This document shows positions 21,301-48,300 of a stretch of DNA of 57,377 bases, piece by piece (the first letter of the stretch is position 1; each line of letters opens with the position of its first letter). The notes beneath the pieces are model-generated. The model saw only the letters and a list, made by a program, of their open reading frames with translations. It searched no databases and was not told the origin of the DNA. The stretch comes from Macrostomum lignano (lineage: Eukaryota), in assembly GCA_002269645.1 (NCBI GenBank), contig NIVC01004160.1, forward strand, positions 1 through 57,377. The letters are read 5' to 3'. The translations under genes and the position numbers were made by a program.

Positions 21301-24300
21301 AAGCATCACGGAGAGCGCGATCGGAGCTGTGCTGCGGCACCTCCGGCTTGAAGGCATCATCGCCACGCATTCCAACTGCTCGCCGGAGAGCCCAAAGGGT
21401 ATTAGACTTTTTCAAATACTTTATTTTGCAGAACCACATGCTTAGACTGAAGTCTAGTTAGTGTAGATTTGTTTTAGGGTAAGAAAAGGCTTGGCCACTG
21501 CGCGGCCTTGAGCGCCAATATATATATTTAGAAATCGATATTTGCGTGGGGTGGAGTTGCGCCTGATAAAAAGGAAGCGTGCAAGCTAATTGGCTGCAGA
21601 GCGACCGGGGCAGGCATTGTACACTTGAGGGTCAGAGAGTTGGACGGGTGCACGGCCAACATCCTTCCCCAAGCGGATAAAAGTTAGGAGATAAGAGCAA
21701 ATGGGAAGCTAAGTAATATTTCGAAGTGGGAATCAGAGGGGAATGGATGTGAGTGAATAGTATGAAAATATACGGATTTGAGAACGAATATTCATTAGGG
21801 CATAAACACAAATATGAGCATGGATAAGAGTTTAGGCATTAGTTTCGATCAAATGAGCATTACCTTTGAAAATAGACACGAGCATTAGTTTCGAATATAA
21901 ATACGACATTAGTTTCGAATATAAATACGAGCATTGGTTTCGAATATAAATACGACATTAGTTTCGAATATAAATACGAGCATTGGTTTCGAATATAAAT
22001 ACGACATTCGTTTCGAATATAAATACGACATTCGTTTCGAATATAAATACGACATTCGTTTCGAATATAAATACGACATTAGTTTCGAATATAAATACGA
22101 GCATTAGTTTCGAATATTTGGCCTTTGAAGCAAAAGCTAAAAGCTATGTATGCTGCTGAAGATTAAAAAATAAAACGAGACCGGCAGGGACACCCCAGTC
22201 AGAGAGTTGGACGGGTGCACGGCCAACAGTTAGGTAATTTTAACTCTCAGAGTAAGCCAACTTGAAATAAGAAAAGATTAACTTTTACGATCGTACAGCA
22301 CCGCATAGGAACCTACCCCCCCCCCCCTACATATCAGATATTATCAATGCAAGTGTCGAATAGTTCATAAAAAACTGGCAGGGTGATAGCAAGCTCTTTG
22401 AATTACGTTCTCTACATTTTAATTCCACTGCCGTGCAAAAATTTCAGTTTGTCCCGGCCTTACGCTGCCCGACTTCATTCCGGACCCGCTGAAGTGCTAC
22501 CTCAACGAGCACTGCATGGGCATCGAGTGCTGCATGAGTTTGGATTTCAAAATCAAGCAGATCTCCGTCAAAGCCTGGGCCTATGTTGATCCATGCGACT
22601 ACAAATTCTCAATCGGTCTGGAAAACTGGAAGTTCGAGAGGGCGCTGTTCTCATTCGACTGGGGAGAGTGGAAAACTGAACGTCTGGGCAACCCGCTGGT
22701 GCTGCGGTAAGTCAGCAGCCGCCATCTGCTGGCGTGGGGGAATTTTTTAGCTAAATATGTTGTTAATTTCAGATACCGGATCGCAAAGGACAGCTCTAGG
22801 CGCGTGTTCACCTTTGACCTAACAATATCGCTGAAGGTGGAGGACATCAACCAAGAGTCCGTTGTGCTGCACGGCTACGAAATTCCGCAGCTGGTTTGCA
22901 ACAGGGAGGCTTCAATTGGCATTGCAGGTCCGAGCTTGCACTTATTCAACATTTATTCAAGTTATACTGTTCAATAGTGCCTGTCTATCAAATTGAAAAG
23001 CTTAGACTGCATAAGAAACCTTTATATAATTGCTATACATATTCACCCGATGAAAGGCATTTTGCTAACTGTGAAACACTCCTCCCTCCCGCCTTATTCT
23101 GCAAGGCATTGTGCTTCTGCCATAACCTTAACGCTATACTGATTTAAAGAACCATGCAATGAGAATAGGTGTATCAAAATGTAAGTGAAATATTTGCAGA
23201 CCTAATCAACCTGGGAAGCAGCATTGGCGGGAACATCAAGGACACAGCCATGGGCATCACTCTGCAGCGCATCGGGCTGGACAAGAAGTTCTTCCGGATG
23301 CAAAACTGCTCAGTCGAAGGCTCCGAGTGGCAGAGCTCTTCTCGGCAGCAATCAAGTGGGTAGCCATTTGTATGTTTTGTCCATTTAATGCTGCAATCAG
23401 TCAGATTTTAACGCTAATATTTTATGCATTCTCAGACTGTCCGCTGTTCAAACTATCGGACCATCTGAACGGCGATAAGAACTTGAAGTGCCGCATCAAA
23501 GACAACTGCCTGGAGGTTGAGTGCTGCCTCAGCCTGCAGCTGGGCAACTTCCGCTACAGCTACAACGCCTGGGCAAAGTTCGACCCCTGCCAGCTGTCTG
23601 TAGCGGTTGGAATTGAAAATTGGAACTGGACCCGGTCACTGTTCGACAAGTGGGGCCTCATGCACACGGAGACCATTGGCAAGGCCATCGATTTGAGGTG
23701 AGGCGAATAATCCCTCCCGCAAAATTTAGTTCGGAGAGGAAATCAACAGACTTTTTACACTATTTTACAGCTTCAAATTCGACCGCACGAATCGGAACGA
23801 GCTCGTCGTGAGCTTCGGGGTCGGCACCCAGCTGGACGGCCTATCGTTGTTGCCAACTGCGTGGCTGATTGAGTCCGCTCCGCTGCCCATTCCCTACTGC
23901 CGCTCCGATAACACGCTGTCTTGGCCAAAATGTGAGAGAATCAGATAATCTTCTTCAGTATCTTAAAGTGGGAAAAAACTACTAATCCCAGTTTGCTCTT
24001 TCTGTCCCACAGTCGATCCGCAAGACATGGCCAAGTCGATTTTCGATGCGGGCACTAAGATCATCCTGAACAGAGTGGGCATCACCGCCAACATCCTTCG
24101 CGGCACAGCGTGCTCCCCAGTCGATATGAACATCTGGCCTCCGAAGAGTGGTAAGGTTCCATTGCGGTTTGGTGCTTTTGTACCTGTGGTCAGCACTGAG
24201 CCTAAGACTTGGATCCCCAGGGGCTCACATCTCGTGCGCTTTACAAGTGGCAGACATAAATAAAGAACCTACTCACTTGCCCGACGCAACAGAACAGCTA

Positions 24301-27300: not shown

Positions 27301-30300
27301 TAAGTCGCAAATGATATTCGGCTTGATTTTAAATAACACCGGAAAAGAATATTTTAAAACAATGAACTACCTCGTAGTACGTGCTAGATTCAACGAATGC
27401 AGACGATAACAATTTAGTAAGATTTCTTGATACTTGTACTTGAAAATTTGTGGATAAAAAACCAAACGGTCAAAACTCTCTTACAGAGACGATTGGCCAT
27501 CAGATCAGCGGACTGCTCGTCAATCGGCTCGGAGTCTCGCCAAAGTTTCTGCGGCAGCTGCAGTGCAGCCGCAACTCTTTGGCGCCAATCGAGAGCTGCC
27601 CCTACTTTGACAAGCCACAGCTGCCTTCCCAGGCCGACTGCCAGCTGCATCACCTCTGCATGGGTCTCGTATGCTGCCTAGACCTCGACCTCGGGTTCGT
27701 TAGCCGCTCATTCTCGGCCTGGGCGTTCGTGGACCCGTGCCAGCACATTGTGAGCTTTGGTTTCGAAAACTGGGCGTTCAATCGCTCCATCCTCAACTAC
27801 CCATGGGGAGAGCAGCGGGTGGAGCACATTGGTGACAGTCTTCTGGTGAAGTACAAGCTAGACCACAAACCAGATGACAGTGCGCTTTTTCTGGATGCCG
27901 CCTTCGACTTGTGCTTGGATGGCAACTGCCTAGCAACTCCGATTACTCTTCTGAATGAAGCGAGGCTGCCCGTGCCGCTCTGCTCTGGTTCTGGCAACCT
28001 CAGCTGGCCCGAATTCAACTCTTCCGACATCCGCGACCACATGGTGGACAAGGCCAGAGAGATGCTCATGCAGCGGCTCGGACTGGAAAAAGACTTTCTC
28101 AAACAGGGTGACTGCGCCCTACCTCCAGGAAGCAGTAGTTTGGCGAACCCGCGTTGCCCGAACTTCAGGCTGACTCGCGACTTGCCCGATTCAGTCCAGT
28201 GCCAGCTTTCTGATGACTGCCTGGAGCTGAGATGCTGCGTCAAGCTCAAACTGATCACATTGGAGAAAAGCTTCAGCGCCTCGTTGCGACTTGACCCGTG
28301 TGCCATGACCTTTAGCGCTCAGTTCGAGAATTGGGCCATTACCAGGCCAGTTTTTACCGACTTCAGTAAATGGTTGAAGATCCTGATCGGCAAGGCGCTG
28401 TCCATCGATATTCAGTTTAACAGGCACCATGATGGCCAGCTGGAGCTCGCCTGGCACGTAGCCAACTGCGCAGGCCACGCCTCTTGCAACGATGAGGTTC
28501 TACCTCTGCTGAGCGATGCCAGGGTGCCAATTCCTCACTGCCTGTCGAACGGCAGCCTTGAATGGCCTAAACTCAATCCTGAGGGTGGAATCGAAAACCC
28601 GATAGACGCAGCCACCGGAGTGCTGATGAACCGGCTCGAGCTTGACCGGCAGCTGCTGAAACAGCCGCAATGCCGTCCTGAACTTTACGCTAAAAAGTGG
28701 CCGCCGCACTGCACATTCGCCGACGTGACCCTCCGCTTGAACCGAGAGCCGTACAACTGCAAGATTCATGACCAGTGCCTGGGCATCGAGTGCTGCACAG
28801 AGCTTGACTTCAAGGTGTATAGCAGACACTTTTTCTACACACAGCTGGTTGATCCGTGCACCTACTCGTTCTACATCGGATTCGAGAATTTCTTTTACAA
28901 CCAATCGCTGTTCCACTTTGACTGGGGGCAGGACAAGCTGCTTAAGATTGCCGGATCAACCGTGGAGCTCAGGTGCGCGCTCGAAATGAATTTTTTTGGT
29001 TCTTTGCTTTCACTGAACATATTTCAAACAAGCAAAACATGTCTCGCAATTTTTTTACTTTGACATTGCTCCTCTTTAAGATACAACCTGACGAGAACAC
29101 CGGATCTGCTGAACCTTATTGTGACGGCTAGACTGGCAATCTGCAAGGAGGGCTACTGCGAGCTGGCCAACACAAACTTCCTGAACCACTACCTGATGCC
29201 GATACCTCGGTGCTACAGCAATGGATCACTGTCCTGGACAGTTGGTAACTACATTTTCCATGTAACGGTTTAAACAATTTTGACAATTTATGGATTGATA
29301 TTTATAAAAATACGAGCCAACTTTTTGCAGAACGCGATCAGGTGTCGCACACAATCAAGGGTATCAGCGGTCTGGTGCTGACCAGACTCAATCTGGAGCG
29401 AGGAGTCATCAGTGACGACTCGTGTCGCCTTGGTGACGTTGAGATCCAAAGAAGTTTTTCGGCCTGTCCTCACACGATAATTCCCAGTCTGCCCGCCGGG
29501 ATGCGCTGCAAGCTGACGTCGCAGTGCACCGGAATCGACTGCTGCATGGACATAAACCTGGGAGTGGCCAGTCGCAGCTTTAAATTTTGGATTTCTGTGG
29601 ACCCCTGCAAATTTATTTACACTTTCGGATTTGAGCGTTGGGTAGTGACGCAGAGCCTCATCGGCAACTTTGGCTTGTTTGGCACGCCGTATGTGCACCA
29701 GCTGGGCAACGTTAAGATCCGCACCAAGCTGGACCGTAGCGCGGACTTCCAAAACTTTATTTTCACATTTGGTGTAACTATTTGCCAGGACGGCGGCTGC
29801 AGTAGCGAGCGTATCTTCCTAGAGAACACAGCGCTGCCCATTCCGGGCTGCAACTCCGGCGGCGGCCTCAGCTGGCCAAGCATCGGCGAACGCAGCGTTA
29901 GCGGCCTTCTGGTTAATCGACTGGGAATCGCGTCCAGTACCTCAGGCCGAGTCAGTGCAACCTGGCGTCTCCTCCACCGGACAAATGTCCTCACATGCCA
30001 CCGATCCATGGCCTTGAGAATCTGCGATGCGCCCACTCAGACGGCTGCATGGGAGTGGACTGTTGCGCCAAGCTCGATCTCGGAATCGTGAGCCGCTCAT
30101 TTTTGGTACGAGCCTTCGTTGACCCCTGCGTGATGGTGCTGTCAATCTCATTCGACAACTGGCTGTTAAATCGAACTTTGCTGAGCTTCGTGTGGGGCGT
30201 TGAACAGCGAGAACAGATTGCCAAAACTGTCCGTCTGATCTACAACCTGGACAAGTCTGCCGACGACAAAGAGTTTGTCCTCACGGCGAGGATCGAGCTC

Positions 30301-33300
30301 TGCCTTGACGATGCAGGACAGCCCTGCACAGTGGTTGGCCTACTTGACAATCAGCGGTTGCAGGTGCCTCTGTGTCACACCAACGGAACGATTGACTGTA
30401 AGTAATGGTACTTCAAGGTGATGTGTTCCTTATTACCCGACTTTCGATAATCAAGGAACAATCACTTCTAGCTCAACAGCTAGGCAACCCAGTAAGTCAA
30501 ACGAAGGTATTCAATTACCTTTAATCCGGATTTGAATTTCTTGAGTAGTTCTCGCTAGATTGTCAGTAGATCTCGTAGTCACTTGATTTTCGTTGTCTGG
30601 TCCGATTCTTCTTTCTTCTAAGTTCCGGCCGGATTCTTCGCTCAGGACCAATGAGCTCGTAGCAACAATGGGTCCCTGCGCCAAACTGCGGTCTAAATTA
30701 AGCCTCCTTCTTCTAGCAGTGCCTCTATGCACTCTAGGTATAGCTCCGGAAACCACTGATAGTCCTCTAAGATCTATCAGGGGCAGTCCTTCTGTAGACT
30801 GCAACCAATGGAGTCTAAACAGACTCAAGAGTCTCAACAGACTCAAATAGACTCAAGTCTCAATAGACTTGAGCGAGACGTCTCTAACACAACGGCGCAA
30901 ATAAGGAAGGCTTACCGCAACAACTCGACCGAGTCTCGATTGACTTGGTATATCAGGAAGTCCTCCTAAGGCTTCCTCTTCGGAGCGCTCCTCTTCCGTG
31001 GGGAGAATGGCTCCGGTACCGCTTCAGATCGCTTGTATTTATAGACAAGTTTTTGATCCAAAATAGTATCATGACAATTCACGTGTTGCGCTAAAAGGGG
31101 AAAATGGCTCATGGCGTATTATTCTGGTAACATCTTTTTCTGGTAGCGTGATTCATTCAAAGCTTAGGCGCACATGCGTGTACTTACTTACTTATAGTAG
31201 TATTATACGATTATCTTCTTTTTTCCTTTTTTAACGGGAGGTAGAACACTCTACAAAATCTCCCTTTTTTACGAAAAAACTCGTCCCGAGTTTTAACAAT
31301 AAAATTCTGTGGTGATCAGTTAATATAGGAAATAAACAATTGATTTTGTGCGCGTCTAGTGAAGCGAGGGTTTGGTCAAAACTCTAAAAACTTTTCAGTA
31401 CATATTGCGGTCAAAACTCGAATATCGCGTAGACATCAAGTGGCATCAGGTTTGATCCGACACCACTTTCGAAACGTGCAGTCTCGCGGCATACTATTAC
31501 ATAAGGGGCATCCTATAACGCCCCTACTAGCGGTTTGCTTCAAACAGTGCATGCAAATAAAATGTTGGTGGTTACAATATTGAAACGTGCGCCAAGAATA
31601 ACAATAGGCACATTGTCGCAAACTATCTCTACAGAGGGGACAATTCTGCCATGGCTGAATATAATGTGAATCGCTTAAACATTGTCCGCAAACTTTATGT
31701 TCGTTGATGCAAATAGTCGGTGGCTTGACAGCCAAGTCATCAGTTAAACATATCGGGCAGTCATATAGCTGCTGAGGCTGGGGCGCCTGTTTTGACAGTG
31801 CGTTGCCCATAATTGTCGTCAATTTGTCGCTGTCTTTGTGTCGCTCGGATTAGTCGCCTTTTACGACAAGCTTGCGAAGCTGTAGTGCTATTCTTTATCC
31901 CGGTCACTACACGGGGTTGTTCTCTAAACTCTAGCGTGGTCGTAGGTTGTAGCCATGTGGCTGGCTCACATCTGTCGTTTGAGTCTCCTCGTGCTTCGTC
32001 GCGATGTGGCGGTTCGTTGAACGCGTGCGATCAGCGTTGTCTAATGTCGGTAGAAACGTCGCGGTGTCAGTGTTGATCTTCTTTAGTCGATGAATGTGCA
32101 CGTAGAATTGATGCTGATGTGGATCTTGCACATTAGCCAGGCGTGCCGTTGTTGGTGACGTTAGTTGGACCACTCGATAGGGTCCTTTATACTTCTGTGC
32201 ATGTTTATGCGTCTGCTGCGGCGGGTAGTGTAGGTAAACGATGTCGCCGGCCGTCAGGGTTGTCGATCTCGCGTCGTTGCCGGTGGTCAGAGCCACCTGG
32301 TTGTCAATGTTGTGCTTGGCGATCTTCCATGCGAGGTGTAGTTGCGTGACGAATTTCTGAATGGAAGTCGGTACTTCCACGTACTGCGATGGTAGCAATT
32401 GCTGTGCGAGCAGATTCGGCGGTTGGAAGTCTCGTCCAAACATTAGGAAGAATGGCGTATTGTCCGTTGATCGATGAATAGCGCTGTTGTAGGCCATTGT
32501 TACAGATTGCAGGTAGATGATCCAGTCTTCCGGCTGTTGGTGCGCGAAATGTGTAATCATCTCGTGCAGGTTGCGGTGAAACCGTTCAACCATGTTTGCC
32601 TTCGGATTGTAGGTCGATGTGTAGATCTGCGTAATGTTGAGAATCCTTACGACTTGCTGAAACAGTTGCGATGTAAACTGCGATCCGTTGTCCGATGTGA
32701 GGTTCTTCGGCGTGCCGTACTTGCAAATGATTTCGTTGAAGAAACTCATTGCCACTGTCTGAGCTGTGATGTCCGGTATCGGTATGGCGATAGCAAACTT
32801 CGAGAAGATATCCAAGGCGGTTAGAATGTAGGTGTAGGCGATGCCCTGGAGACAGCTCGGTGGCAGTGGTCCGGTGATGTCGATGCTTAGACAGTCCATT
32901 GTAGTCGACTTCGGAATGGACTGTAGCTGCGGTTTCTGTCGTCGTCCTGTCTTTGATGCAGCACATGAATGGCAGTTGTTGCAATACTGCTTGATGTCGC
33001 CGTACATAGTTGGCCAAAAGTAGTATTGTTCCACTCTCGCGATGGTCTTTGCGGCCGACAGGTGTCCAGCGAGTGGGTTGTCGTGCAGCTCGTTGAGAAT
33101 TGCTTGCCGAAACGAATATGGTACGTAGATCTTGGGTTTATTGTCGCTCATCCAGTAGAGCCGTGACTTATTGATTGTTAGGTGTTGTCGTTGCTTGCGT
33201 AGGAACTTTCGTTCCATGGGGCTAAGTTTGATGTTCTTGTCGTCGTCTTTAACCGCTTGGTAGAAGTTGTCGCGCTCGGTTTCATCCACCAACTCCTTGA

Positions 33301-36300
33301 TGTTAGGGATTGGATGAATGGCGTTGACTTCATAGGCTCTTGACAGGGCGTCCGCGGCTTTGTTGGTAATTCCTGGTTTGTAGACGAGTTTGTAGTTGTA
33401 ATCCTGGATCTTGAGTGTCATCCTGATGAGTCGGTTGTTGGTCTGTCCTTTTGTAGTTACGACGTAGGTCAATGGTGCATGATCCGTGCGTACTATCGTC
33501 TGTATTGGAGAACCATAGATGTAGTAATGAAACTGTCGCAGGGCGAACAAGACTCCTAGTAGCTCTCGTTCCGTAGCTGACCACTTTGTCTCATTTGGTT
33601 TGAGTGCTCGACTGACGTAAGCAATAGGTCGTTCCTTCTTGTCCTCGGTTTCCTGTAGTAGGACTGCTCCGAGTCCCGTTCCTGAGGCGTCTGTCTCGAT
33701 GATGAAGAGCTTGTCGAAGTCCGGATGCTGTAGCAGTGCGTCTGATGTCAGCTGTCGTTTGATTTCGTCGAAACTTTCCTGTTGTCTCTGTGTCCAGTTG
33801 TCTTGCTTCCATTTGTCGAACTTGAGCAGGTCGTACAGTGGCTTTGCTGTCTTTGCGAAGTTAGGTAAGAACTTCCTGAAGTATTGCGCAAGTCCAAGGA
33901 ATGATTGGACCTTCGTTATACTGGTTGGCGTAGGAAACTTCTTCACCTTTTCCACGTTGTCTGGGTCCGGTGAGATTCCTTTGGCTGTCACCTGATGTCC
34001 CAGGTAACGCACGTTGTCTCGGAAGAATTTGCATTTAGTTGGTTGTAGCTTCAGACCTTGACGTTGTATAAGCGCGAGGGCCTTCTCCGTCGCTTCATAG
34101 AGTCGTTCGAAGTCTTCTCCGTGGGCCAAGATGTCGTCAACATAGTGCAACAGGTTCGTGCATCCTGCAGCATGTATGCTGTTAGTCGGCTCATCGTTGC
34201 TGGGCTGTTGCTGAGTCCCATCGGCGATCGATTGTACTCGTATACTTGTCCATTGTAGGTTTTGAAAGCCGTGTACTGTCGTGACTCTTTCTCGATTTCA
34301 ATTTGCCAAAATCCATGACGTAGGTCGAACACCGTGAACAATTTTGCCGTGTTGAGCTTTGCTAGTAGTTCGGAGATCTTCGGTAGGCTTTGCTGATCCG
34401 TCGGTATGTACTTGTTCAACAGTCTGAAGTCGCATACGAGTCGTCTTTCGTTTGTCTCCTTCTTCTGTACCAGTAGGCACGGTGAGGAGTAAGCCGAAAT
34501 AGCTTTGCTGATGATGCCGTGCTTTAGCATTTTATCGATGATTTCGTCAAAGTGTTGTTGCAGATGCTTGGCGATCGGGTACGGCTTGCACTGAATTGGT
34601 TCCGTGTGCGGCAGAAGTTTGATTTCCTGTTTGATGTCCTTGGCTCGTCCGATGTCGTAATTATGATGGCAGAAGGCTTCGTTGTACTTCCACAACAGCT
34701 GTCGAACTTTCCTCTTTTGCTGTTCCGTAATCGGGCTGTCATCCAAATTGATCTTCTTTTGAAATTCTTCCTCTGTTAGTCGTGGAGTCGCTTGTTCAAT
34801 CAGCATAACCGATGCTTGGGTGTTGAGATGACCGATGCACATTCCTTGTCGTAGATGAACCGTTTCTGTGTTCGGGTTGCAGATTTGTACTGGCAGTTGC
34901 TTATCCTTTGCAACCAGCACTAGTGCCGTAGGCATCATGATTTGATGTTTTGCCGTGACTCTCCTGTGTGGATCAAATATCATTGCTTCATCTGCCGCGC
35001 TGGTCGTTTTCGCTCTGACCCAGCATGCGCTTTCAGGCTGGATAATGACATCTTGCTGCAGAGTTACTTTCGGTAGTACTCGAATCTGGTTGATCAGCGG
35101 TTGCTCCACCGTGTCGATCCTAAACGTTTGCTTGTTGAAGTCGAAGGTCAATGGTAGTTGAAGCTGCTTGAACGTGTCGATTCCAACGATGACGTCTTGG
35201 TTTGGTAGTCTGTCGATGATGTACGTCGGGACCGTCAGCTGTTTATTAGCAATTTTCAAGTCGATATCTGCTTTTCCTAGGATGTTGAGTGAATGTCCTC
35301 CTGCTCCTGCAACTGCGATTGCTGCTGGTCGTACCGCGAGTCGTAGCTTGTTGCATAATTGTTGCGAGATGACTGTGATCGAGCTGCCTGAATCCAGTAG
35401 TGCTCGACATGGCAAGTTGTTGACAATGACCTGAGCCATTGCTTTGCCAATCTCGGCGTGTAGCGTACAGACGTAGTTTTCCGGCCATTTTGGCTCGTGC
35501 TGTTCTGCTTGATAGTTGGGTGGTTGTATCCTTGGTGCCGTTGGTGTTGTCGGAATCGATGGATATAGCCGCGTTGCTAGTGTCGGTTGCCCTTGAACCT
35601 CACAATGTGCAGTTTCTGTTAGTTCTAAACTGTTGTCGCTTCCCGTTGTCGTTCTTTGCATTATGGCATTCACTGTCTTCTTAGCTCTTGGACAAGTTTG
35701 ACTGAAGCACCGTACGATCGATGAAATGATGAAGATTGCCGTGACAATCCACACAATGCAAGCACCGTAGAAGATGAATCCTTGATAGAGACTGCCTCTT
35801 CCATTGAGCAGCTCCCAGAAGCTATTTGTCCAAAATGATTTGATGGCGCTGTCCATTGAAACAAGGACGGGAAATCTTCCTGTCCCGGTTCCTTTGTCCT
35901 TTCTTGTGAACAGCTGGTGAATCATCTTGCGTTGGGTGATGAACGCTTGCAAGAAGTCGTTGATCGTCCATCCTGGTGTTATCTCGTCAAGTTGGATATC
36001 GGCGAATGGCGTATACTTCGTTCTGTTGAATCGGATTTTCAAATCCTCCATGTCGTAGTTTTCGTCGACGATTACTTCCGGTTCTGTGACGTTTGCTGTC
36101 GTTCCAGTTGTTTTGATGACGTGTAGTGCATTGTCCAGTTGATAGTAGTTTGCTGCCGTGGTGCAAGGTCTCGGTATTGCGGTGCCAACGATGATGTTGT
36201 GTACCGTGTCCAAGAATCCCTGAATTCGTTTTCCTTCGTAGAACGCTTCAATCCTTGGCTTGTCGTAGCAGGTTGTTGACGTGTTCGACGGCAAGATGTT

Positions 36301-39300
36301 AAAGTGCTGTATCGGCGTGCACTTGTATATTAACAGATGCTCGTATATTGGAACTGCCAAAACGTTCGTCATTCCGGTGATTTTACGAAAAGTCATCGTA
36401 GGGTTGACATAGTAGTTTTGTCTGGCATAATTTAAGTTGATTGCGTGCATTTTGCAAGTTAGCTGGACCAGTGTTCGATGCAAGTGGTTTAACTGGTTGT
36501 GTAGATTGTGATCCAAAGCCGTTATCTTTGCTGACAGTAGTCGGTTTGACACCAGTTTGGGACGTTCGATGTCACGTCGTCGTCTGTTCTGTTGTTCCTG
36601 CTGTTGATACGTTCCGTTGATGATCGCCAGAAAGGTTTGTTTGTCGTCATCTTTTACGTAGACTGGTATCTCTTGTTCCGAGATGAATAGTGTCTTGTCT
36701 GTATCCTTGCATTTCAGTTTTTGCTCGACTGGTTTCTTTTGAAACGTCAGTGCCAAGTCTCCTGACTTTGCCAAAAACGTATTTGACAGTAGTCCTCCTT
36801 CAACTGTGTGATACTTTTGAAGCTTGCAGTCAATTTCCGGCTCAACTTCCCACGCGAAGAAGTATTGTCGTGACTTAGATGGTTCTTCATATCGTGAGTC
36901 GCCTCTGCGTATAATTTGCCATCGATAGTCTTGATGATATGTTGGACTCAACGGTAAGCTGTATAGTTCCTCATTCCGCAGTATCGGCGTTGGACACCAT
37001 CCTTTGCTGTATCGGCAGTCGCTTAATTGCAGTTGTAGCGACTCCATTTTTTCAAAAGGATTGTGATAGAATGGAATATTCCTGATTAGGTAACTGTTTC
37101 GTGTCATGTAGTTAGTCCATGCTTCCGAAAAGTGTACATATCGTCCGTTTGCTGAGTTCTTCGTTCGGTAAAGTTGTGCCTCCCCACTTTCTCATCCGGT
37201 TCTAGCTGACCATCCTTTGAGAACAGTGTTTGGTTCCATTGTAGACATTCAGCGTGCGACACATGTAGTTCGTGTTGCCAAAATCGAATTCTGTTCCACT
37301 GTCCTCGCCAAACTTTTTCCACTAGGTGCTTGTCTCTAAAGCACACTATTCCGAGTTGTCGATGCTTCTTGATGTTAGCTTTGTAGAGATCAATTGTGAT
37401 CTTCTTTGGCTTCGTCTGGTTTGTCTTGAAGTAGCTGCATTTGATGTCGGTTGGTATCTTGTAGATCATTGGTTGGATATGCGCATCCGTTGGACATATC
37501 ATTGGTTTCTCCATTGCCGTTGCTTTGGCGACTACTGCTATCAGTAGTATCACGATGATCCAGAGCAGCCAGTTTTTCCACTTCTTGGACCTTGCCGTTG
37601 TCTTTGCTGGCATTGGCTGCGATTGCCATTCGTTATCCTCCATGTCCGCATCGTATTCTTTCGGTTGTTCCATTGGCTGATTCAGGCGGAAGGCTTCTGA
37701 TTTGCTTTGCTCTTTGGTTATTTCAGTATCTTCGTCTGTAGCTTCTTCCGATGTTTCCGTTGTTTCACTCCATTGCGTTTGGTATCTTTTCTCTGCCTTG
37801 TAGTCGACCGTTTGAATATAGGCTTCACCATTTCGTTTGTATCGGATCTCGTAGCATTCGTCGCTGTCGGAACTCGGCTTTTCTTTCATTTGTTCTTTTT
37901 CCATTTCTTCATCTTTCCATTGTATTTCGTAGCCTTGATCGCTGTCGGAACTTAGATTTTCCGCTCTCAGTTCTTCCTGCATTCCTTCTTCGGCTCGGTA
38001 TCCATTCGTATCATCATGCACTTCGCAGTCGTGATCGTTGCCGTAACTTATACATTCTTCTTCTTCCTTCATTTCTTTGTCTTTCGTGCTTGTTTTTTCG
38101 TCATCCACTGTTGTCGATTCATAGTTGTTTTCTCTGCCAGTCTTCATCTTTTCTTCGTTGCCGGTGTCGCTCTCCGTCTCCTCCCTTTTTTTGTGATTTA
38201 CTTTCTTCCTGTTTTCTCTGCTGTCTCCGGTGGTCTCTTTTAATTTGATCATTTCGGTTTCATTCGCCTCTTCTGTGTTGTCAGTGTTGTCCTCGTGCGT
38301 CGTCTTCTTTTCGATCAAGCTGATGTCAAGTTCCGGGACTGTGAAGTCCATTTCCAAGTCGTCAATTGTGAACACTTGCTGTTCCTGCTGCTCATTTTCC
38401 GGTGTGTACGTGATGGCATTCGCGTATCGTGGCATTGCTTGCGTTGGCTGTCTTTGTGCGTACCTGGCATTGCGTGGCCTGTAGCCATTATTTCTGAAGC
38501 GGCCTTCGTTTCCGAAGCGGCCATCATTTCCGGAGCGGTCATTATTTCCGAAGCGTCTATCATTTCCGACGCGTCTTATGCTTTGTTGTTGGCGATTTTG
38601 ATATTGCTGCCATGGTTTCTGCGGCTTCTGATTGTTGAATATCTGTCGCGGCTTGTCGTATCTTGTTGACCAATGAGGACAATTAATCTGATAATGTCCT
38701 TCTTGTCCGCAGTAGTAACATCTGGCTGAGGCTTGTTCATTTCGTCTTTTTTGTTCGGCGATAGCAGCTGTCTGGTGCTGCATTAACTTGTTTAGTTGCT
38801 GCGTCAGTTTCTGCACTTCATTGTTGCCTGTCGTCATTAATGGGGCACTGGCTTCCCACTGCATTCCGCACCGCAAAAGGTCTTCTTCGGTTTCGATATT
38901 TTCACGCAAAAGTCTATCCCGAAGTGACGGCTGTGCGTTGTTTATTACGTGCAGGATGAGGTTTTGTTCGCGATCCATCAATCGTTGTCTTTCTCTGGCG
39001 GCCAATTCTGCCGCTCCCAGTGGCGGTTGGTCCGCAGCTTGCAGCGGTGGCTGATGCAGTGCCTTAATTATCTGGCGGATATCGTCCACAAAGGCGAGGA
39101 AGGATTCTGTTGCTTGCATCCTTCTGTTATGCAACTTGTGCAGCAGCACTGATCTGTTTGTGCCGCAACGGTTGAAATGCGCGCGCAGTTGAATGATTAG
39201 TGCTGGATAATTTTGCTGTGTTGCTGCATCCAGCTTGCCGTAAATTTCTCGCGCAGTACCTTGGAGAAGAGGTGGCAGCAGCTGTGCCTTCTCTGGATTT

Positions 39301-42300
39301 TGTAGGTTGTATTCCCTACATACCAGGTCAAAGTGGTCGACAAATGTGTTAAAATCTTTCTCCATCGAGAAGGTACCGACCGTTTCTTTGATGTCTCTGT
39401 GTACCGTTGGATTGCGCCGCGCCATGTTGTTGATAGGATAGAACGGTAGTTCAAGATCTGGATCGATTTGTAACGGATCGTCCAGTGTGGTGTTTGCCTC
39501 GGAATAAACCTCGACTGTAACGAATTGTCTTGTGGTGTCGATTTGTTATTCGCTGGCCTCGGATGCGGTGTGGCTTGCTGCCACTGGTTGTCCTCAAATG
39601 AACTTGTTCTGTTCGCTTGCTGATTTCGCACTTATGCGGCGTCCCGCAAAGTGTATCTTCAAGTTGAAGTGGGCTTTGTCTTCTTGTTTTGCAAAGTCTT
39701 TTTCTCTTCTTTGACTCTCTCTCTTTTGTCAATTAACTCCGCTCTCCACGAAGTTTCAATTAATTTCGGTTTTGTTTTTGTGCCGGCAAAATGTTTCAGT
39801 TATTTTTTGTTTGTTTTGCGTCGACGATTCTTTTATTTTCGGTTTGTTTTCAGTGTACCGATGAATTTAATTTCGGTTTTATTTTAACTCACACTTGCTC
39901 GAGCTCGTTAAAACAAAATTTAACACGCGTGCTCAAACTGTACTCAAATTTGACAGGTGCTCAAACCTGTACACCAAAATTTACTCGAGTTTCAAAACGT
40001 AACGGACTTAAAAAGTGTTAACTCTAACACGTGCGCGCAAAATTAATGAAGTCGCTCTGTCGTCACTTTACAATAGCTTGATCAGGGCTATTGCTCAAAG
40101 TTTGAGTAGTGCCGAGAGGGCGAGATCACCAATTGATGTGTTCCTTATTACCCGACTTTCGATAATCAAGGAACAATCACTTCTAGCTCAGCAGCTAGGC
40201 AACCCAGTAAGTCAACAGAAGGTATTCAATTACCTTGAGTCCTTTGGAGATCTCTCGGAGTAGTTCTCGATTGTCTTCAGTTGCTCTCGTATAGTCACTT
40301 CTGACTTTCGTTTGTAGAGCGGGTCCGATTCTTCTTTCTTCTTCAAATAGTTCCGGCCGGATTCTGTCGCTCGGACCAATGGGAAGCTTCCGAATTAACA
40401 GTGGGATCCCTGCGCCAAACTGCGGTCTAAATTAAGCCTCCTTCTTCTAGCAGTGCCTCTATGCACTCTAGGTATAGCTCCGGAAACCACTGATAGTCCT
40501 CTAAGATCTATCAGGGGCAGTCCTTCTGTAGACTGCAACCAATGGAGTCTAAACAGACTCAAGAGTCTCAACAGACTCAAATAGACTCAAGTCTCAATAG
40601 ACTTGAGCGAGACGTCTCTAACACAACGGCGCAAATAAGGAAGGCTTACCGCAACAACTCGACCGAGTCTCGATTGACTTGGTATATCAGGAAGTCCTCC
40701 TAAGGCTTCCTCTTCGGAGCGCTCCTCTTCCGTGGGGAGAATGGCTCCGGTACCGCTTCAGATCGCTTGTATTTATAGACAAGTTTTTGATCCAAAATAG
40801 TATCATGACAATTCACGTGTTGCGCTAAAAGGGGAAAATGGCTCATGGCGTATTATTCTGGTAACATCTTTTTCTGGTAGCGTGATTCATTCAAAGCTTA
40901 GGCGCACATGCGTGTACTTACTTACTTATAGTAGTATTATACGATTATCTTCTTTTTTCCTTTTTTAACGGGAGGTAGAACACTCTACAAGGGGTAACAG
41001 AAGAAAATGGATTTACGAAAAAATTATTTTTACACTCTTAGGGGACTTTGATAAGGTCGACGGCAGCAAGATCTGGGACAATGCCGCTGAGATAGCGCTG
41101 AAGCGGTTGAACATCCCTCCAGGCGTGTTCAAACCTGAGAACTGCTCAATCGTCACTTCGGCCGCGGTGTCAAGAAAGAACTGTCCGCATTTCACTGTGC
41201 CTCCGCATCTTCCTGAGGGCGCCAAGTGCAGAATTAGCGACGACTGTCTGGAAATGGATTGCTGTGTCGACCTGCAGCTGCTATCGTTTAAAAAGCAATT
41301 CCACGTCTGGCTCGAGATCGACCCGTGCGGTCTGCGGTTCGAAACTGGCTTTGAAAACTGGAAGTTCAACATTAGTCTTCTTAATCATATCGGTGAGACT
41401 ATTCATATGACGATTTGCGACAGAACTGTGTGCTCAAAAAGGCTTAAACCAACTGTCTAAAAATTCATAGGTCGCAGCTACAAGGAGAAGATTGGCAACT
41501 CGCTGTCAGTCAATTTCGAATATGGCCGAGCATCCGACGGTCAGCTGTTGGCCACGCTGTCAGTAGAGTTTTGCTACGACTTCCAGTGTACATTCGACAT
41601 CAAGCTGCTTGATATGGCAGTGATACCCATTCCAGCCTGCGGAGCATCAGGACTCGTGTGGCCTGAATGTGAGCCGTATTGTAGTTCCTTTGTACTTTGA
41701 AGCTATTACTTATCAGGAATTTGATAATAACTGAATTTGTAATTTCAGTAAACGCGGCCGGTCATGCCAAATCTGTCGAAGAGGCCACAAGAGGTCTTAT
41801 CGCTAACCGGCTGAAGCTGTCCCCGAACTTCCTGGCGGATCGTCAATGCGTAGTGAACGAAATTTTGAGCAGAAATGTGACTTGCTCACACGCCAATGTG
41901 CCTGCCTTGCCAGAATTCACAACTTGTGGCCTGGCACCCGGCTGCCTAGGAGTTGAGTGCTGCCAGCTAGTGGACTACAAGCTGCTCAATAGGAGCTTCT
42001 CCACCTGGATTCAGTTCGATCCTTGTACCTACACGTATTCAGTTGGCTTTGAGCGCTGGTATCTGAATGGCACTCTCATGAATTTTACTGGATGGAATGA
42101 AGAGCAGCAGCAGAAGATCGGCGACCAGCTCACCCTGCGATTCAAGGTGGCAAAAGCGCAACAACTGCAAAGCTTCATAGTAGGCATGTCGCTTGAGTAC
42201 TGCGATGCCAACGATTGCAATCGAGTAGCGAATATTCTTCACGATCAGGAGTTCCCGGTTCCCGTCTGTTTGGACGGCTCCAGGCTTGAATGGTCGAATG

Positions 42301-45300
42301 TTGACCGCGGAGTCAGCGGCATCGTGGCGACTCAGCTCGGAATGGACATCGGCCTGCTTAGAGAGCGACAGTGCCAGAAGTCCGACCTTGGACAAGCCAG
42401 TGTCCAGTGCCCGCACGTGTCTGCGCCCGACTCGCGTGAGGTCAGCTGCTCTGCCATCGGCATTTGCACCGGCCTTGACTGCTGCTCACTGGTCAACTTG
42501 AAGGTCGCCGAAGTGGCATTTAAAACTTCTATCGATGTGAACCCGTGCACGTACGAACTGGCGCTTACGTTTGAGAAGTGGTCCTTCAATCGATCTTTGC
42601 TGGGATTCGAATGGGCCAGAAAGACAGAGCACTCCATCGGGGAGAATGTAAAACTGGTGTACACACTCGGCCTAGCCAATGAGATGAAGGACCTCATTTT
42701 TAATCTGGAGCTTTGGGTTTGCCCGCTCAAAACAGCTTGCTATAGTGTTCCAGTGTTGACAGACTTGCACCTGTCCATTACGGCCTGCATTAACGGAACG
42801 TTGATCTGGCCTGGAGGTAAAAAATTAATTAGAGTCTGACTGGTTTCTGGCTTCATGTAATAAAATTTTATGCATACTAATCTGAAATTTTAGTACCGTC
42901 GCCCAACCAAGTCGACACGGTGAGCGGTTTGATAGTAAACCGGCTGAAAATCGAACCGGCCACTCTCATGGACAGGCAGTGCTACAACTCCTCTCTCGTG
43001 ATTCCCGATAAGTCACAGTGCCCGTTTGGAGACAAAGTCAATGTTCAGGCTGCAGATCCCAGATCAATGTGCGTCCTGCAGTCAAGCTGTGTCGGAGCTG
43101 TGTGCTGCCAGAACATGGACCTCATGGTAGTGTCCCGATCGTTCCATATCAGCGTTTTTATCGACGTTTGCCAGTTTGAATTTACAATCACCTTTGAAAA
43201 GTGGCACGTCACCGCTTCGTTTCTAACTCTAGAGTTCGGTAAGGTTATCTTTGTTTGTGTCAAGTAACTGAATTGTGAATTATTTAAACAAAAAATACTT
43301 TGAATTATTACCAATGCAGACAAACCGCACGAAGTCGCCGTGTCTCCAACTTTGAAGCTGTACTACGAGGTAAACAGCCACTTCTCCGGCAGCGGCGCCC
43401 TGATATCTGCCGGCTACATTCTGTGTCTCGAAGAAGGCGAAGCTTGCCAAGCACCAATGCCAGTAATGCAGCCTACTTTCTTCTACCTACCGATCTGCGA
43501 CAGTGGCAAACTCATCTGGCCTCCTGTGGACAATCCGGACGACCTTAACAAGGTGCCGAGCACTCTGATCCTTAATAGACTGGGACTTCAGTTCGATGAC
43601 ATGTACACCAGCAGTGCGAGGTGGACTATCTGCAAAAATCTATTTGGGAATCTTGGTGTCGAGATCACGTCAGAAATGAGACGGACACCGCTGATCTGCG
43701 CTGCACACCAACCAAGTCTTGTACAGGCATGGAGTGCTGCTACACAATAGATCTTAAGATAACAAAGCATAGCTTCAAGCTTTGGATGTTCGTTGAGCCG
43801 TGTACTCTGCAACTGTCGCTGGGATTCGAGCGGTGGAGCATGAACAAGACGCTGTTGGGATACAATTTCGAGACTAAGCACACAGAACAAGTAGGCAGAG
43901 CAGTGCAGTTGGAGTATCAACTGCAGCTTGCCTCCGACTACAAAGAGTTTGTTATGTCCTTGGATTTGCTGATCGGTGTAGGAAGCGATACTATAAGGTA
44001 CAACATACTAGACACCTTCTGGATGAAGATACCACTGTGCACTCAAAGCAGTGACGTTGGCTTCATGTGGCCGGATGAAGAGATCTACGTTAATAACGGA
44101 ACATACTCCAGAGCGAACAGCCTGCTACTGAACCGCATGGGGCTGACAGAGGCTGACAATGCCACGGTGCTAACACTGCTGCACAGCTACCCGTGCAACT
44201 TTAATAGCATCCCACAGCACAGCTGCCCGCATCTCACAATGCCTCCAATGTCACCGGGTGTTCAGTGCCAGTTCACCGAAGGCTGCGTCGGGGTGAGCTG
44301 CTGCTTGCCTGTCAACTTGAGTGTCGGCAACTGGTCTTTCCGCTCGGAGCTGTACGTTGAACCCTGCTCGATGATCTTTAACTATCAATTTGAGCGGCAA
44401 ACAATTTCAAAGGAACTATTGGAAAGGGATCTGTGGTACGAGCATAGAACGTTCAGGTTTGGTCCGTGGATGTCTGCTTCATACAGAATGACTCGAACGC
44501 CCGACAACAAGCATGTGATCTTGAACCTGACGGCATCACTCTGCACAGATCATGCTGGTGTGCTAGGCAAATGTGAAATGGAAGCTGACATCCTGAACAA
44601 CATGAACTTTGAGTTCCCAGTGTGCTTGTCCAACGGAACTTACCTGTACCCGTCTCAGGCGGATGTTGAAAGCGGTTTGATTATCAACAGACTGAAAGTG
44701 TCCCCTGATCTGCTGAGGTCAAGCCAGTGCGCCATTGATGAATATCCGCTAAGGGAGTACGTTAACGAAACTGTCATAGTTGAAGTTGAAGTTCCATGCA
44801 ACGGCTCCATCGACAACTCATCGGTATCGACTCCCGCTCCACCCTATCCAAACGCTACATGCTACGAAAACCAAACGCAAATTGTTGAGCGCGAAATTTT
44901 GACGCCGGCGCCCTACTGCCCGCACTTCAACGACAGCGTTTTGTGGAGAAATCGAGACGCAAAGTGTTCCTTCAATCTCGACTGTCTTGGCATCAAATGC
45001 TGCATAGAAATCGACCTTGACGTAGCTAAACGAGATTTTTTCTTTACTTTTGACCTCGATCCATGCAACGATACACTGAAGGTTGGATTTGAGAATTTCG
45101 TCTTAAACTCTTCACTATCGGGCTTTCATTTCGGAAGAACTTTGAATATCCACATCACGGAGCGAATATCTGTGGATCTTTACATGAGCGCTGTGACCGC
45201 CACGTCACCCACCATTGTGCCTGGGCTGTGGGAGCCGATTCAAGGAGATGATATAGTTGCCTATCAGGTGGATCTGCACTTCTATTTTACTTTGCCTGAG

Positions 45301-48300
45301 TCTGCAAGTGCCAATCAGTTTGAGTACCAGGTAGTAAACATGACTCTCGTTCCGGTTCCTCCTGGCTGCCAGAGCAAGTTTAGAGGAAACTGGACCAGTC
45401 CCGACCTTGACGATAACAGCATTATAGAGGAGAGTTTCAACGGTCAGCAGCAGTACCCGTACGTGTCCGAGCTACACAGTCGGAACAAGAGAAGCCAAGC
45501 TGCTCCGTCTCCGGCAGCGCAAGGCTTCAACACTGGCATGAACGACCAGATGGATCCGGTAACTGAAATGCTCAGAGATGTCAGCGGCCAGTCAGACTTA
45601 CTGGAACAGTGGTCTCACCTGGGCTTTGAAGCAGTGAATCAGCGCATGCAGGAAATAGTAATGCGCAAAGCGGCTAGCTTGGGAATCAGCATGCCGTCAC
45701 CCGAGGATGACAAGCGAGTTCAGCAGGACTTGCGCGACAGCGCAGGAAGTTCCATTCGTACTGGAGCCATGCTTCGCATGAATCCGCACAGGTTTGCAAT
45801 TCAAATCGGTGGAGAAGATCTCGAGACAAACTTCAAGAAGGGTGTTGAGCACATTCGCGCCGTGCTTCTCAAGGCTTCATCCAACGCAGGAAATGCACTG
45901 CAGGGCGGTGTGTACGTACCTGGACAGGGATTTTCCAAACAGGGACTTGCAGATTTGGCGTACTTGATAGGAAATATGACAGTCTTTGATCTCGCCGCGT
46001 TAATAAACACTAAGAATGTCGACCCGCTGGAGGTTTATCTTCTAGTGAAAGATTTTTCCTTGCTTGTAACTCAAATGGTAAGAACTTTACGTTTAGGGAA
46101 ATATTTCCCTATATTTCCATATATTTGTCTTTCTGCTGAACTGCATGTTGCAAATATTATGATGCCTAAACTTCCAGATCGAAGAGTTATTTGATACAGC
46201 CATCTCAGGAGGATTTAACAGCGAACTTTTCAAGTCATTTGACATCACTTTAAGCGGAAAATTTACTCTATATGATCAATACGTTACGTTCTTCACTGAA
46301 TCGTGGACTTTTGTTATTGGTGGCTTCGTGCCTGTAACGTTTTACTTCAGTGCCGGTGGATTCTTTACGATCGAAATAAAGCTTGAGCTAAAGATATTGT
46401 CAATGACCGCCGCAGCAACGGCCACACCGAAGCTCGGAGCCAAAGTACGACTAGATTTTTACAATGTTTCGCTCAATTTTTTAATATTTCGCCTACTAAT
46501 CTTTAAATTTTTTCTATAGGCTGTCGGTGGCGTGTACATCTGCTTCTTCCTTTGCGGCGGAGCAGAACTGACGGGATACATCATGGAGACCCGTTTCCCA
46601 ACCAGGGCTGAGATCGGATTCAGCAAGTTTCCTCTGGACGTTGGACTCACGTTGGATGTAGAATTGGTTCCTCTGCGACTACAACTGGATGCTATTGTGA
46701 AGCTCGAGTTGAACCTGAAGTTCATAAGAATCAGGTAAAAATATTGTATTGGTAACTCCTTTACCTTGAGCGTGATCGTTGGCAAGCAGACGCCTGTACA
46801 GAATTAGGAAGCTATGCATAGATTAGAGCGTTGGCTGAAACTATGGGACTGATTGAAAAAGTAGACGTCAGTGGCTACAGCGCCAAAAGTATGTTTCATC
46901 TCAAATAAACTTTTGACTTCAGAAAAGTATTCTTCAAAGCTGCCATCTGGAAGTACTCTGCTCCGAAGATTTCGAAAAACATCCTGAACGTGCGGACAGG
47001 CAAGCCGGACGACACGCCACCGCGGATCACCGAAATGGAATCAACACCGGACAGTGCCTTTGCTGTCGGCAGGGAAACTCGACATTGCAGAGTTCTGCAG
47101 CTGCGAGGCAGAGACGTCATGGATCCGGCCTTCCTGCTCGAGATTCAGGCCGAGGACGATGTCAGCGTATTGAAAATGACCTACAGCGTTGGCACGGCAA
47201 AGGGCTTGACCGATATTGTCCGACATGATGAATTTAAAGGACCATCTGCAATCATTGCCCGGGTGCGTTGTTATACATATTTTATGCCCGATTCTTCTCT
47301 CTCGTACACAGCACGCTGACAAAAATTATACAATTCCTATGCAGGTTCTTCCGCACAGCATACCTCTCTATTTCACGGTGCATGTCTCTAATAATCAAGG
47401 AGATACAATTCATGCTACCTGCGATCTTCCCACCTACGATACAACCTTGCCGCGAGGCCGAGTCCAAGAAGACTTTAGGAGCACCAGCAATACCAAAGTT
47501 CTGTCTGCTTTTGTAGTAGCGAGCGATGACTCGGAGATAATTGATACCAAAGTCGCAGTCGGGCTGGGTGTCGATGCGGGTGGAGAGAGCCACACCTTCT
47601 GGAAGAAGCTAGACCTGAACAAGGATGACAACATTAATGGTAAACTTTTTAAACAACGATATTCATAGAGTAGGACGAGTATAATGAGCACTAAGGCTAT
47701 ATTCATATTTTATTATCAACTTTCAGACGGCTACCATTTGAACCATTTCTCTGCGCCAAAGCATGGCCGCCTTGCCAGCGGAGTTTATCTGACCAGGACC
47801 AACATTCACGTCAGTTTTCTCTGCGCTGAAGATTGCCTTAAGCAGGGCGACAAGTGCAGAGCCTTCAACTACCACTGTAAGTAGTTGATTTAGCAAAGCG
47901 CACAACTCTGCAAGTGAAAATTTTTCATTTAACTTTTTCTTTTCCAGCGGTCAACAAAGTTTGCGAACTGACACACGACATTGTGGGGCATCGCTTGAAA
48001 CTATCCGAGAGTGACAGCTTTGCCTACTACGAACGGAAATCAGTTGGGCACTCTGTGAACTTTTTTCAGAGTGGCTTCACTCTGCAGCACAATAACATTC
48101 ACTTTGTCAATCTGTTCGTTAAAAACATCCTGGGCTATTCTTCAATTTTATCGTCGCAGCCGATTTTGACAGACTTCGACCCGCCTCACCCAGGCTTTAT
48201 CGCGAATGCATCCCTTGTAGAAATAGTTTACACAGTGTGCCGAGAAAAGATCATTAAAAAGTGGTGGGACAGGTGCGGTCCAGTGAAGCCGCAGGACGCT

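Follow-up and report, generated by a model that had tools for sequence, protein, structure and literature searches.

One reading frame for Gag, a predicted class III Env and Pol in a Ty3/gypsy retrotransposon family of the flatworm Macrostomum lignano

We analysed a 57,377-nt stretch of Macrostomum lignano DNA (contig NIVC01004160.1 of assembly GCA_002269645.1, positions 1 to 57,377; hereafter the window), which carries on its minus strand a long terminal repeat (LTR) retrotransposon at 30419–40989. The family to which this element belongs carries one uninterrupted open reading frame (ORF). Taking all the evidence together, we are fairly confident that the element inserted recently and belongs to a multicopy Ty3/gypsy family in which a class III envelope protein (Env) sits between gag and pol in a single ORF of about 2,500 codons, that the two breaks in the window copy are assembly errors, and that no recoding is involved.

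In the window copy, the coding region appeared as three long minus-strand frames at 39545–37104 (813 aa), 37191–34051 (1,046 aa) and 34297–31931 (788 aa); the ATG at 39425 and the stop at 31931 delimit 7,495 nt. In Pfam, the first frame matched a zinc knuckle; the second matched a viral fusion glycoprotein (weakly), an aspartic protease (PR) and positions 2–145 of the reverse transcriptase (RT) profile RVT_1; and the third matched RVT_1 positions 147–205, RNase H (RH) and integrase (IN). RVT_1 was thus cut exactly at the second of the two breaks (break B). The second frame was open for 28 codons upstream of its ATG at 37107, and this ATG overlapped the stop of the first frame (ATGA, 37104–37107), both as described in the original prediction. 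That prediction regarded the three frames as probable parts of one Gag, Env and Pol polyprotein frame of 2,499 codons, broken by two single-base deletions.

To compare the window with other genomic copies, the same genome was searched with 551-nt queries around each break, and 40 of 83 and 40 of 79 candidates were scored. At break A, 38 of the 39 covering sisters were one base longer than the window, at ~37180–37186, and at break B this was true of 37 of 38, at ~34168–34170, which places both breaks within a few bases of where they had been predicted. Among the top 19 sisters of each search, the count was 18 of 19 at each of the two sites. The coding span was then taken for all 39 non-self matches of the break-A search, four of which were cut by contig ends. 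A stop-free frame crossed the border between gag and the Env signal in 24/37 copies, break A in 28/39, the border between the Env anchor and the protease in 31/39, the PR–RT border in 34/39, break B in 28/37 and the RH–IN border in 27/37; the copies that failed did so through private losses at scattered positions. The sisters thus kept neither a break at the ATGA overlap nor a general stop between env and PR, the two outcomes that would have counted against the original prediction. The whole span was stop-free in three of the 39 sisters, whose frames have 2,481, 2,481 and 2,539 codons between stops. The longest of these frames starts at the equivalent of 39545 and, counted from the equivalent of the ATG at 39425, comprises 2,499 codons with the stop, the predicted length.

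An independently deposited protein, ALD16272.1 (“retrovirus-related polyprotein [Macrostomum lignano]”, 1,488 aa), runs unbroken from mid-Env to the end of the integrase and is 98% identical to the window family over the matched env part. Because the sister copies and ALD16272.1 run through, the family's frames are closed at no border by a stop or a shift. The three minus-strand ORFs of the window copy are therefore parts of one frame, as proposed, and the ATGA overlap is a by-product of break A. Alternative codons were counted in five regions, using for each break the frame open before it and the one open after it. The ratios of distinct non-synonymous to synonymous alternatives were 0.31 for gag, 0.43 for env before break A, 0.45 for env after it, 0.33 for PR-RT and 0.31 for RT-RH-IN; the neutral value of such counts is ~2.8, a rule of thumb and not a computed value. 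These ratios point to purifying selection on all parts, including Env in the frames on either side of break A. DNA identity between subfamilies fell to 84% in the acidic spacer (37600–38600) and the start of Env (36900–37450), versus 97% in an RT stretch, and mosaic-looking copies suggest recombination among subfamilies.

The env region of a natural sister (647 aa) was folded as a monomer with 32 distant relatives, with a predicted local distance difference test score of 75.6 and a predicted template modelling (TM) score of 0.61. All Foldseek matches listed from the Protein Data Bank were herpesvirus gB (TM 0.21–0.32), with HSV-1 gB as the best (E 1.8e-19), and the best viral matches were mononegavirus glycoproteins, those of Beihai rhabdo-like virus 3 (E 3.4e-25, TM 0.43) and Nyavirus midwayense (1.1e-24). 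A language-model search of Env returned PF24664 clusters (0.94–0.95), and the Pfam match to PF24664 itself lay under the cut-off (23.7 vs 27 bits). By sequence, Env matched no solved structure (best E 0.3). The TM-scores are low (0.2–0.43) and count against the assignment; on the model, Env is nevertheless classed as a class III fusogen of the gB/rhabdo-G-like kind between two hydrophobic segments. Exactly two such segments were found in the element and they flank the ectodomain, which gives the GAG-ENV-POL layout, with an ectodomain between a signal or transmembrane segment and a transmembrane segment, all between gag and pol.

The position of the breaks was in line with the expectation that they fall inside env and RT. 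Break A lies at about residue 140 of the env model, in the long-stranded part of the fusion domain and within one folded domain, and break B splits RVT_1. The ATG at 37107 maps within strand 165–180 of the model and, being inside a strand of the fusion domain, is not a gene start. Five heptamers of the form XXXYYYZ (Z = A, C or T) occurred in the coding span, none of them in the −1 register and none in either overlap, in agreement with the earlier statement that a usable slippery site is absent. These observations bear on the idea that the breaks are functional, with the ratio of Gag, Env and Pol controlled by programmed −1 frameshifting or, at the ATGA overlap, by coupling of stop and start. 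The ATGA overlap is indeed present in the sequence and each break is common to one other copy, but functional breaks would be missing from 38/39 and 37/38 sisters, which refutes the idea at the family level. In addition, none of the heptamers is placed so as to allow a −1 shift, an ORF starting with the ATG at 37107 would begin inside a β-strand of the fusion domain and have no signal, and break B cuts RT just ahead of YxDD. We regard the probability of functional breaks as negligible. A recurrent single-base loss at ~35645, just after the Env anchor (5/19 copies in one comparison, 4 of the copies inspected locally in another), was also considered as an env/PR frameshift and was rejected: the site is a short run with no slippery heptamer, the contigs of two runs are gapless there, and ALD16272.1 is in frame.

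The source of the two missing bases was examined in the sisters, in the host gene and in short-read runs. Over 216,169 aligned nt, the sister copies had 123 uncompensated single-base losses versus 15 gains, at 97 distinct places. The losses amounted to 0.57 per kb, with a range of 0 to 14 per copy; ~4 would be expected per ORF length, and the window copy shows 2. Neutral decay produces far more substitutions than indels. Over 7.5 kb, 6 substitutions and 6 gaps separated the closest sister from the window. Break A was common to one sister and break B to another, and both of these sisters shared a third loss at ~35645 that is not in the window. Because the two break-sharing sisters share this third loss without the window, descent alone cannot yield the pattern; context-dependent error or recombination can produce it.

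The host gene provided a direct case. In the window, one base is missing from its exon at ~29936; the base was present in 4/4 short-read runs and in another contig of the assembly, C3190. In the run without splice joints, a contig matched 27400–30446 with no other letter different and crossed the insertion junction. The apparent frameshift in the host exon at 29917–30091 is therefore an assembly error, and the same cause is probable for further overlapping frames of this sort in the host gene. At 34168, in break B, the extra base was likewise present in 4/4 short-read runs, and the contigs of three runs over 36921–37368/37428 have one gap each. Between the window and C3190, the region 48073–57377 differed by 15 substitutions and 29 indels, the window being shorter in 19 of the latter.

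Three points weaken the case for an assembly origin of the breaks. In the contigs of three runs, the placement of the gap at break A was deduced rather than read directly. The region 40799–48123 differed from C3190 by 1 substitution and 0 indels, i.e., the error rate is not uniform. Finally, the short-read data are assembled contigs pooled over copies, with rare variants dropped, and they do not isolate a single copy. This last point leaves room for the same single-ORF family in which at least one loss is a real mutation of this insertion, which would hence be a dead copy. A one-copy variant could hide in pooled contigs, and copies of the family do decay: some sisters have rearrangements and larger deletions, and an internally deleted form (joint 34278–35936) was found in one run. 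By contrast, the U3/R parts of both LTRs are 100% identical and the nearest sister has only 6 substitutions in 7.5 kb, which leaves little time for two indels, while the 123:15 bias to losses, the finding of losses at identical positions in unrelated copies and the proven error in the host exon all point to the assembly. We consider a real mutation here improbable. That both breaks are single-base losses from long-read assembly is, in our judgement, very likely. The claim of two single-base deletions thus held in that each break is one base short, and gave way in that these are most likely errors of the assembly and not mutations of the window copy.

On its sequence features, the element is a Ty3/gypsy LTR retrotransposon of the Metaviridae type (Table 1). 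It has two TG...CA LTRs, a primer-binding site (PBS) and a polypurine tract, and its pol order by Pfam is PR-RT-RH-IN. The best solved relative of RT-RH-IN was Ty3-G Gag-Pol (E 8.5e-65 vs 2e-22 for a foamy-virus integrase). A language-model search with Gag matched zf-CCHC, Retrotrans_gag and Ty3_capsid (score 0.92–0.95). The priming transfer RNA was not found by one pattern search. A BEL/Pao element with Env, like Atlas virus, was considered and rejected: Pfam gave no Peptidase_A17 match in the element frames, the RT motif is YxDD, and Env stands before PR. The U5 end of the 3′ LTR (30419–30700, the last 282 nt) was 84% identical to the 5′ LTR and had no partner above 89% among the 40 copies scored out of 616 candidates. 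It resembles a deletion-rich blend of two subfamilies and was probably mis-assembled from mixed reads.

Table 1 Features of the element and its host intron in the window. Positions are those of the window; protein features are predictions.
Feature	Position	Strand	Remarks
Host-gene intron	30398..41041	+	~70 nt without the element; element inside, antisense
5′ LTR	40134..40989	−	856 nt, TG...CA
Primer-binding site	40120..40131	−	12-mer identical to that listed for Mlig_errantivirus_2
Single Gag-Env-PR-RT-RH-IN frame	31931..39425	−	2,498 aa in the family; two single-base losses in the window copy
Gag, with a capsid-like region and a single CCHC zinc knuckle (from 38720)	38660..39425	−	PF00098
Acidic spacer	37600..38360	−	~30% D+E; most variable part among copies
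First hydrophobic segment (predicted internal signal/signal-anchor of Env)	37497..37583	−	Hydropathy peak 2.6; model helix 4–26
Env ectodomain, predicted class III fusogen fold	35791..37496	−	Furin-type basic site at 36585
Break A	37178..37191	−	Window 1 base shorter than sisters, within the Env fusion domain
Second hydrophobic segment (predicted Env transmembrane anchor)	35692..35790	−	Hydropathy peak 2.43; model helix 605–636
Aspartic protease	35149..35439	−	PF13650, PF13975, PF00077
Reverse transcriptase core, YxDD at 34144	33989..34467	−	PF00078, split over the second and third frames
Break B	34163..34172	−	Window 1 base shorter than sisters and than four short-read runs, within RT
RNase H	33398..33796	−	PF17919, PF17917
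Integrase: HHCC, rve core, GPY motif at 32185	31931..33124	−	PF17921, PF00665
Polypurine tract directly before the 3′ LTR	31259..31270	−	From sequence
3′ LTR	30419..31255	−	837 nt; same U3/R sequence as the 5′ LTR; last ~270 nt differ from every scored copy

The insertion lies in an intron of a host gene on the opposite strand. Two RNA-like contigs skip the element, running from 30398 into the sequence at ~41042. At C3190:28349–29204, a solo LTR occupies the same host site and matches the 5′ LTR of the window element without a difference in the 677 nt compared; the one insertion exists in two forms, full element and solo LTR. Divergence between the window and C3190 is ~1.6–2.8% to the left of the insertion and 0.01–0.5% to the right. 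Target duplications of 4 bp were found in 4/6 sister LTR pairs and in 9/17 of the single-LTR loci listed. The window element's own flanks differ at one of the four bases, and at the mismatched base (30416) C3190 and the window disagree. Copies of the element also lie next to each other in the assembly, at C2447:183380–202549, where they are 9.73 kb apart and share an LTR as a tandem array, and at C669:2386–21473.

The host gene itself is very long (~11000–56000, plus strand), with long exons and short introns and one transcript contig of 17.5 kb, and it encodes many repeats of a cysteine motif, C..CC...D.....R.F....DPC....GFE.W. No Pfam family was above the cut-off in five of its exons, and the only relatives were Mytilus proteins at 21–24% identity. 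The window further contains tandem arrays at 2195–2944 (35-nt unit), 7003–8223 (24), 8787–9920 (20/21/41), 19356–20258 (15) and 21858–22100 (24–25).

The kind of element and its gene order are already in print, and the family adds neither a new kind of element nor recoding. Ty3/gypsy elements of gB type with GAG-ENV-POL order were reported from Nematoda, Bryozoa and Platyhelminthes, and the supplementary file 1 of that study lists one M. lignano family, Platyhelminthes_Rhabditophora_Mlig_errantivirus_2, found by an ENV-POL search (Chary and Hayashi, eLife 2026, PMC13524379). As listed there, Mlig_errantivirus_2 agrees with the window family in host, ENV_HSV type, PBS 12-mer and multicopy state (16 listed), in LTR length (~863 nt vs 848–864 among the sisters) and in an LTR spacing of ~9.7 kb (PMC13524379). 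The element very probably belongs to Mlig_errantivirus_2, matched by these listed features and not by sequence alignment. The terms “polyprotein”, “frameshift” and “single ORF” do not occur in the main text of PMC13524379, which therefore does not state that the three genes form one frame. In the parts of PMC4604429 and PMC12801592 that were available, the latter including a search of its supplement for env terms, no env-bearing family was mentioned. Our literature search found no paper that states a single frame for the flatworm family. Nematode elements are reportedly described as single frames by Sacco et al. 2022.

A profile-free search with Env of 1.84 billion representatives gave 63 relatives at E <= 0.001, of which 20 were scanned. 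In eight, a single chain held Env and, after it, RT (P0016, P0023, P0027, P0032, P0052, P0055, P0060 and P0066); with P0069 and P0071, ten had RT. The named relatives with Env and RT were a second M. lignano family and two nematodes. Database proteins with Env, PR, RT, RH and IN in one chain included PAA86625.1 (2,852 aa) and proteins of Globodera rostochiensis (2,517 aa) and Panagrolaimus superbus (1,811 aa), with others of 2,627–2,991 aa. The second M. lignano family is represented by PAA86625.1 (P0016), a single Env-PR-RT-RH-IN protein whose Env is just 29% identical. The window family shares gene order and the class III type of Env with the GAG-ENV-POL elements of gB type, but its Env is only 22–30% identical to theirs and, unlike in them, a long acidic spacer separates its zinc knuckle from the Env signal.

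Two other groups of envelope-bearing elements were compared. Drosophila errantiviruses (gypsy, ZAM, Idefix) likewise combine a Ty3/gypsy pol with an envelope gene; they use a gag-pol frameshift and a spliced env RNA. Their order is gag-pol-env, however, and their Env is of F type, according to the same survey (PMC13524379). Atlas virus of Ancylostoma ceylanicum (Belpaoviridae) is described as having one stop-free and intron-free Gag/Pol/Env polyprotein of 2,828 aa and identical LTRs, like the window family in its single frame; it differs in being a BEL/Pao element, in the order Gag-Pol-Env, by which Pol is not the tail of Env, and in its class II GN-GC envelope (PMC9094657).

From the sequence and the Env model, the following expression scheme can be proposed. 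Unspliced RNA would be translated into one polyprotein, of which Gag and the acidic spacer would be made in the cytosol. The first hydrophobic segment would thread Env into the endoplasmic reticulum and be cut by signal peptidase, and the second would anchor Env and return the chain to the cytosol, so that PR-RT-RH-IN would begin as the cytoplasmic tail of Env. Furin would cleave the ectodomain, and the element's protease would release the enzymes and Gag. As in the original prediction, Gag, Env and Pol would be produced in equal numbers without splice control; they would meet on one membrane, an arrangement that would replace Gag-Pol frameshifting for bringing Pol to the particle. In five long Env-before-Pol relatives (P0016, P0055, P0060, P0066 and P0069), a hydrophobic segment stood ahead of the Env match, and in 4/5 another stood after it; two other long relatives had one or no such segment.

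The output would be 1:1:1 only in the absence of any shorter RNA. The family was present in three RNA-like runs, so designated from their GT-AG joints, with all bins of the element covered. These runs splice the adjoining host introns, and none lists a canonical joint in the element itself, though contigs can miss minor forms; the sole internal joint listed was a non-canonical deletion in one run. Most LTR elements need extra Gag, and many more Gag than Pol molecules are normally needed per particle. The single ORF might accordingly be read with an output other than 1:1:1, spliced or subgenomic RNAs or premature termination supplying the additional Gag. For Cer1, no stop separates gag and pol and yet a spliced RNA is made, as PMC10309623 reports. 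The missing internal joint in the three RNA-like runs argues weakly against extra Gag of this origin, which we regard as possible though not the likelier case. It concerns expression only and is compatible with assembly error as the source of the breaks.

Only tentatively do we suggest the full picture, in which a putative polyprotein crosses the membrane twice, Pol is delivered as the cytoplasmic tail of a gB-like fusogen and not as Gag-Pol, Gag, Env and Pol are equal in number, and the element, transcribed and recently mobile, forms enveloped particles that move between cells. Our literature search found no paper stating a topology with Pol as the tail of Env, although Sacco et al. 2022 may state it for nematodes.

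The repeats in this assembly carry ~0.6 false single-base losses per kb, and ORF counts there are unreliable at face value. For the flatworm GAG-ENV-POL family, one ORF in place of three fixes the predicted membrane topology, with Pol as the tail of Env, and prompts one to ask how Gag is supplied in sufficient amount. The spread of retrotransposons carrying a gB-type env is stated to be unknown in the discussion of PMC13524379. The M. lignano family is young, multicopy and present in RNA-like runs, and its host is a cultured animal, which makes it convenient for seeking particles and processing products; its remaining interest lies in the unusual topology of Pol on Env and in this accessible host.

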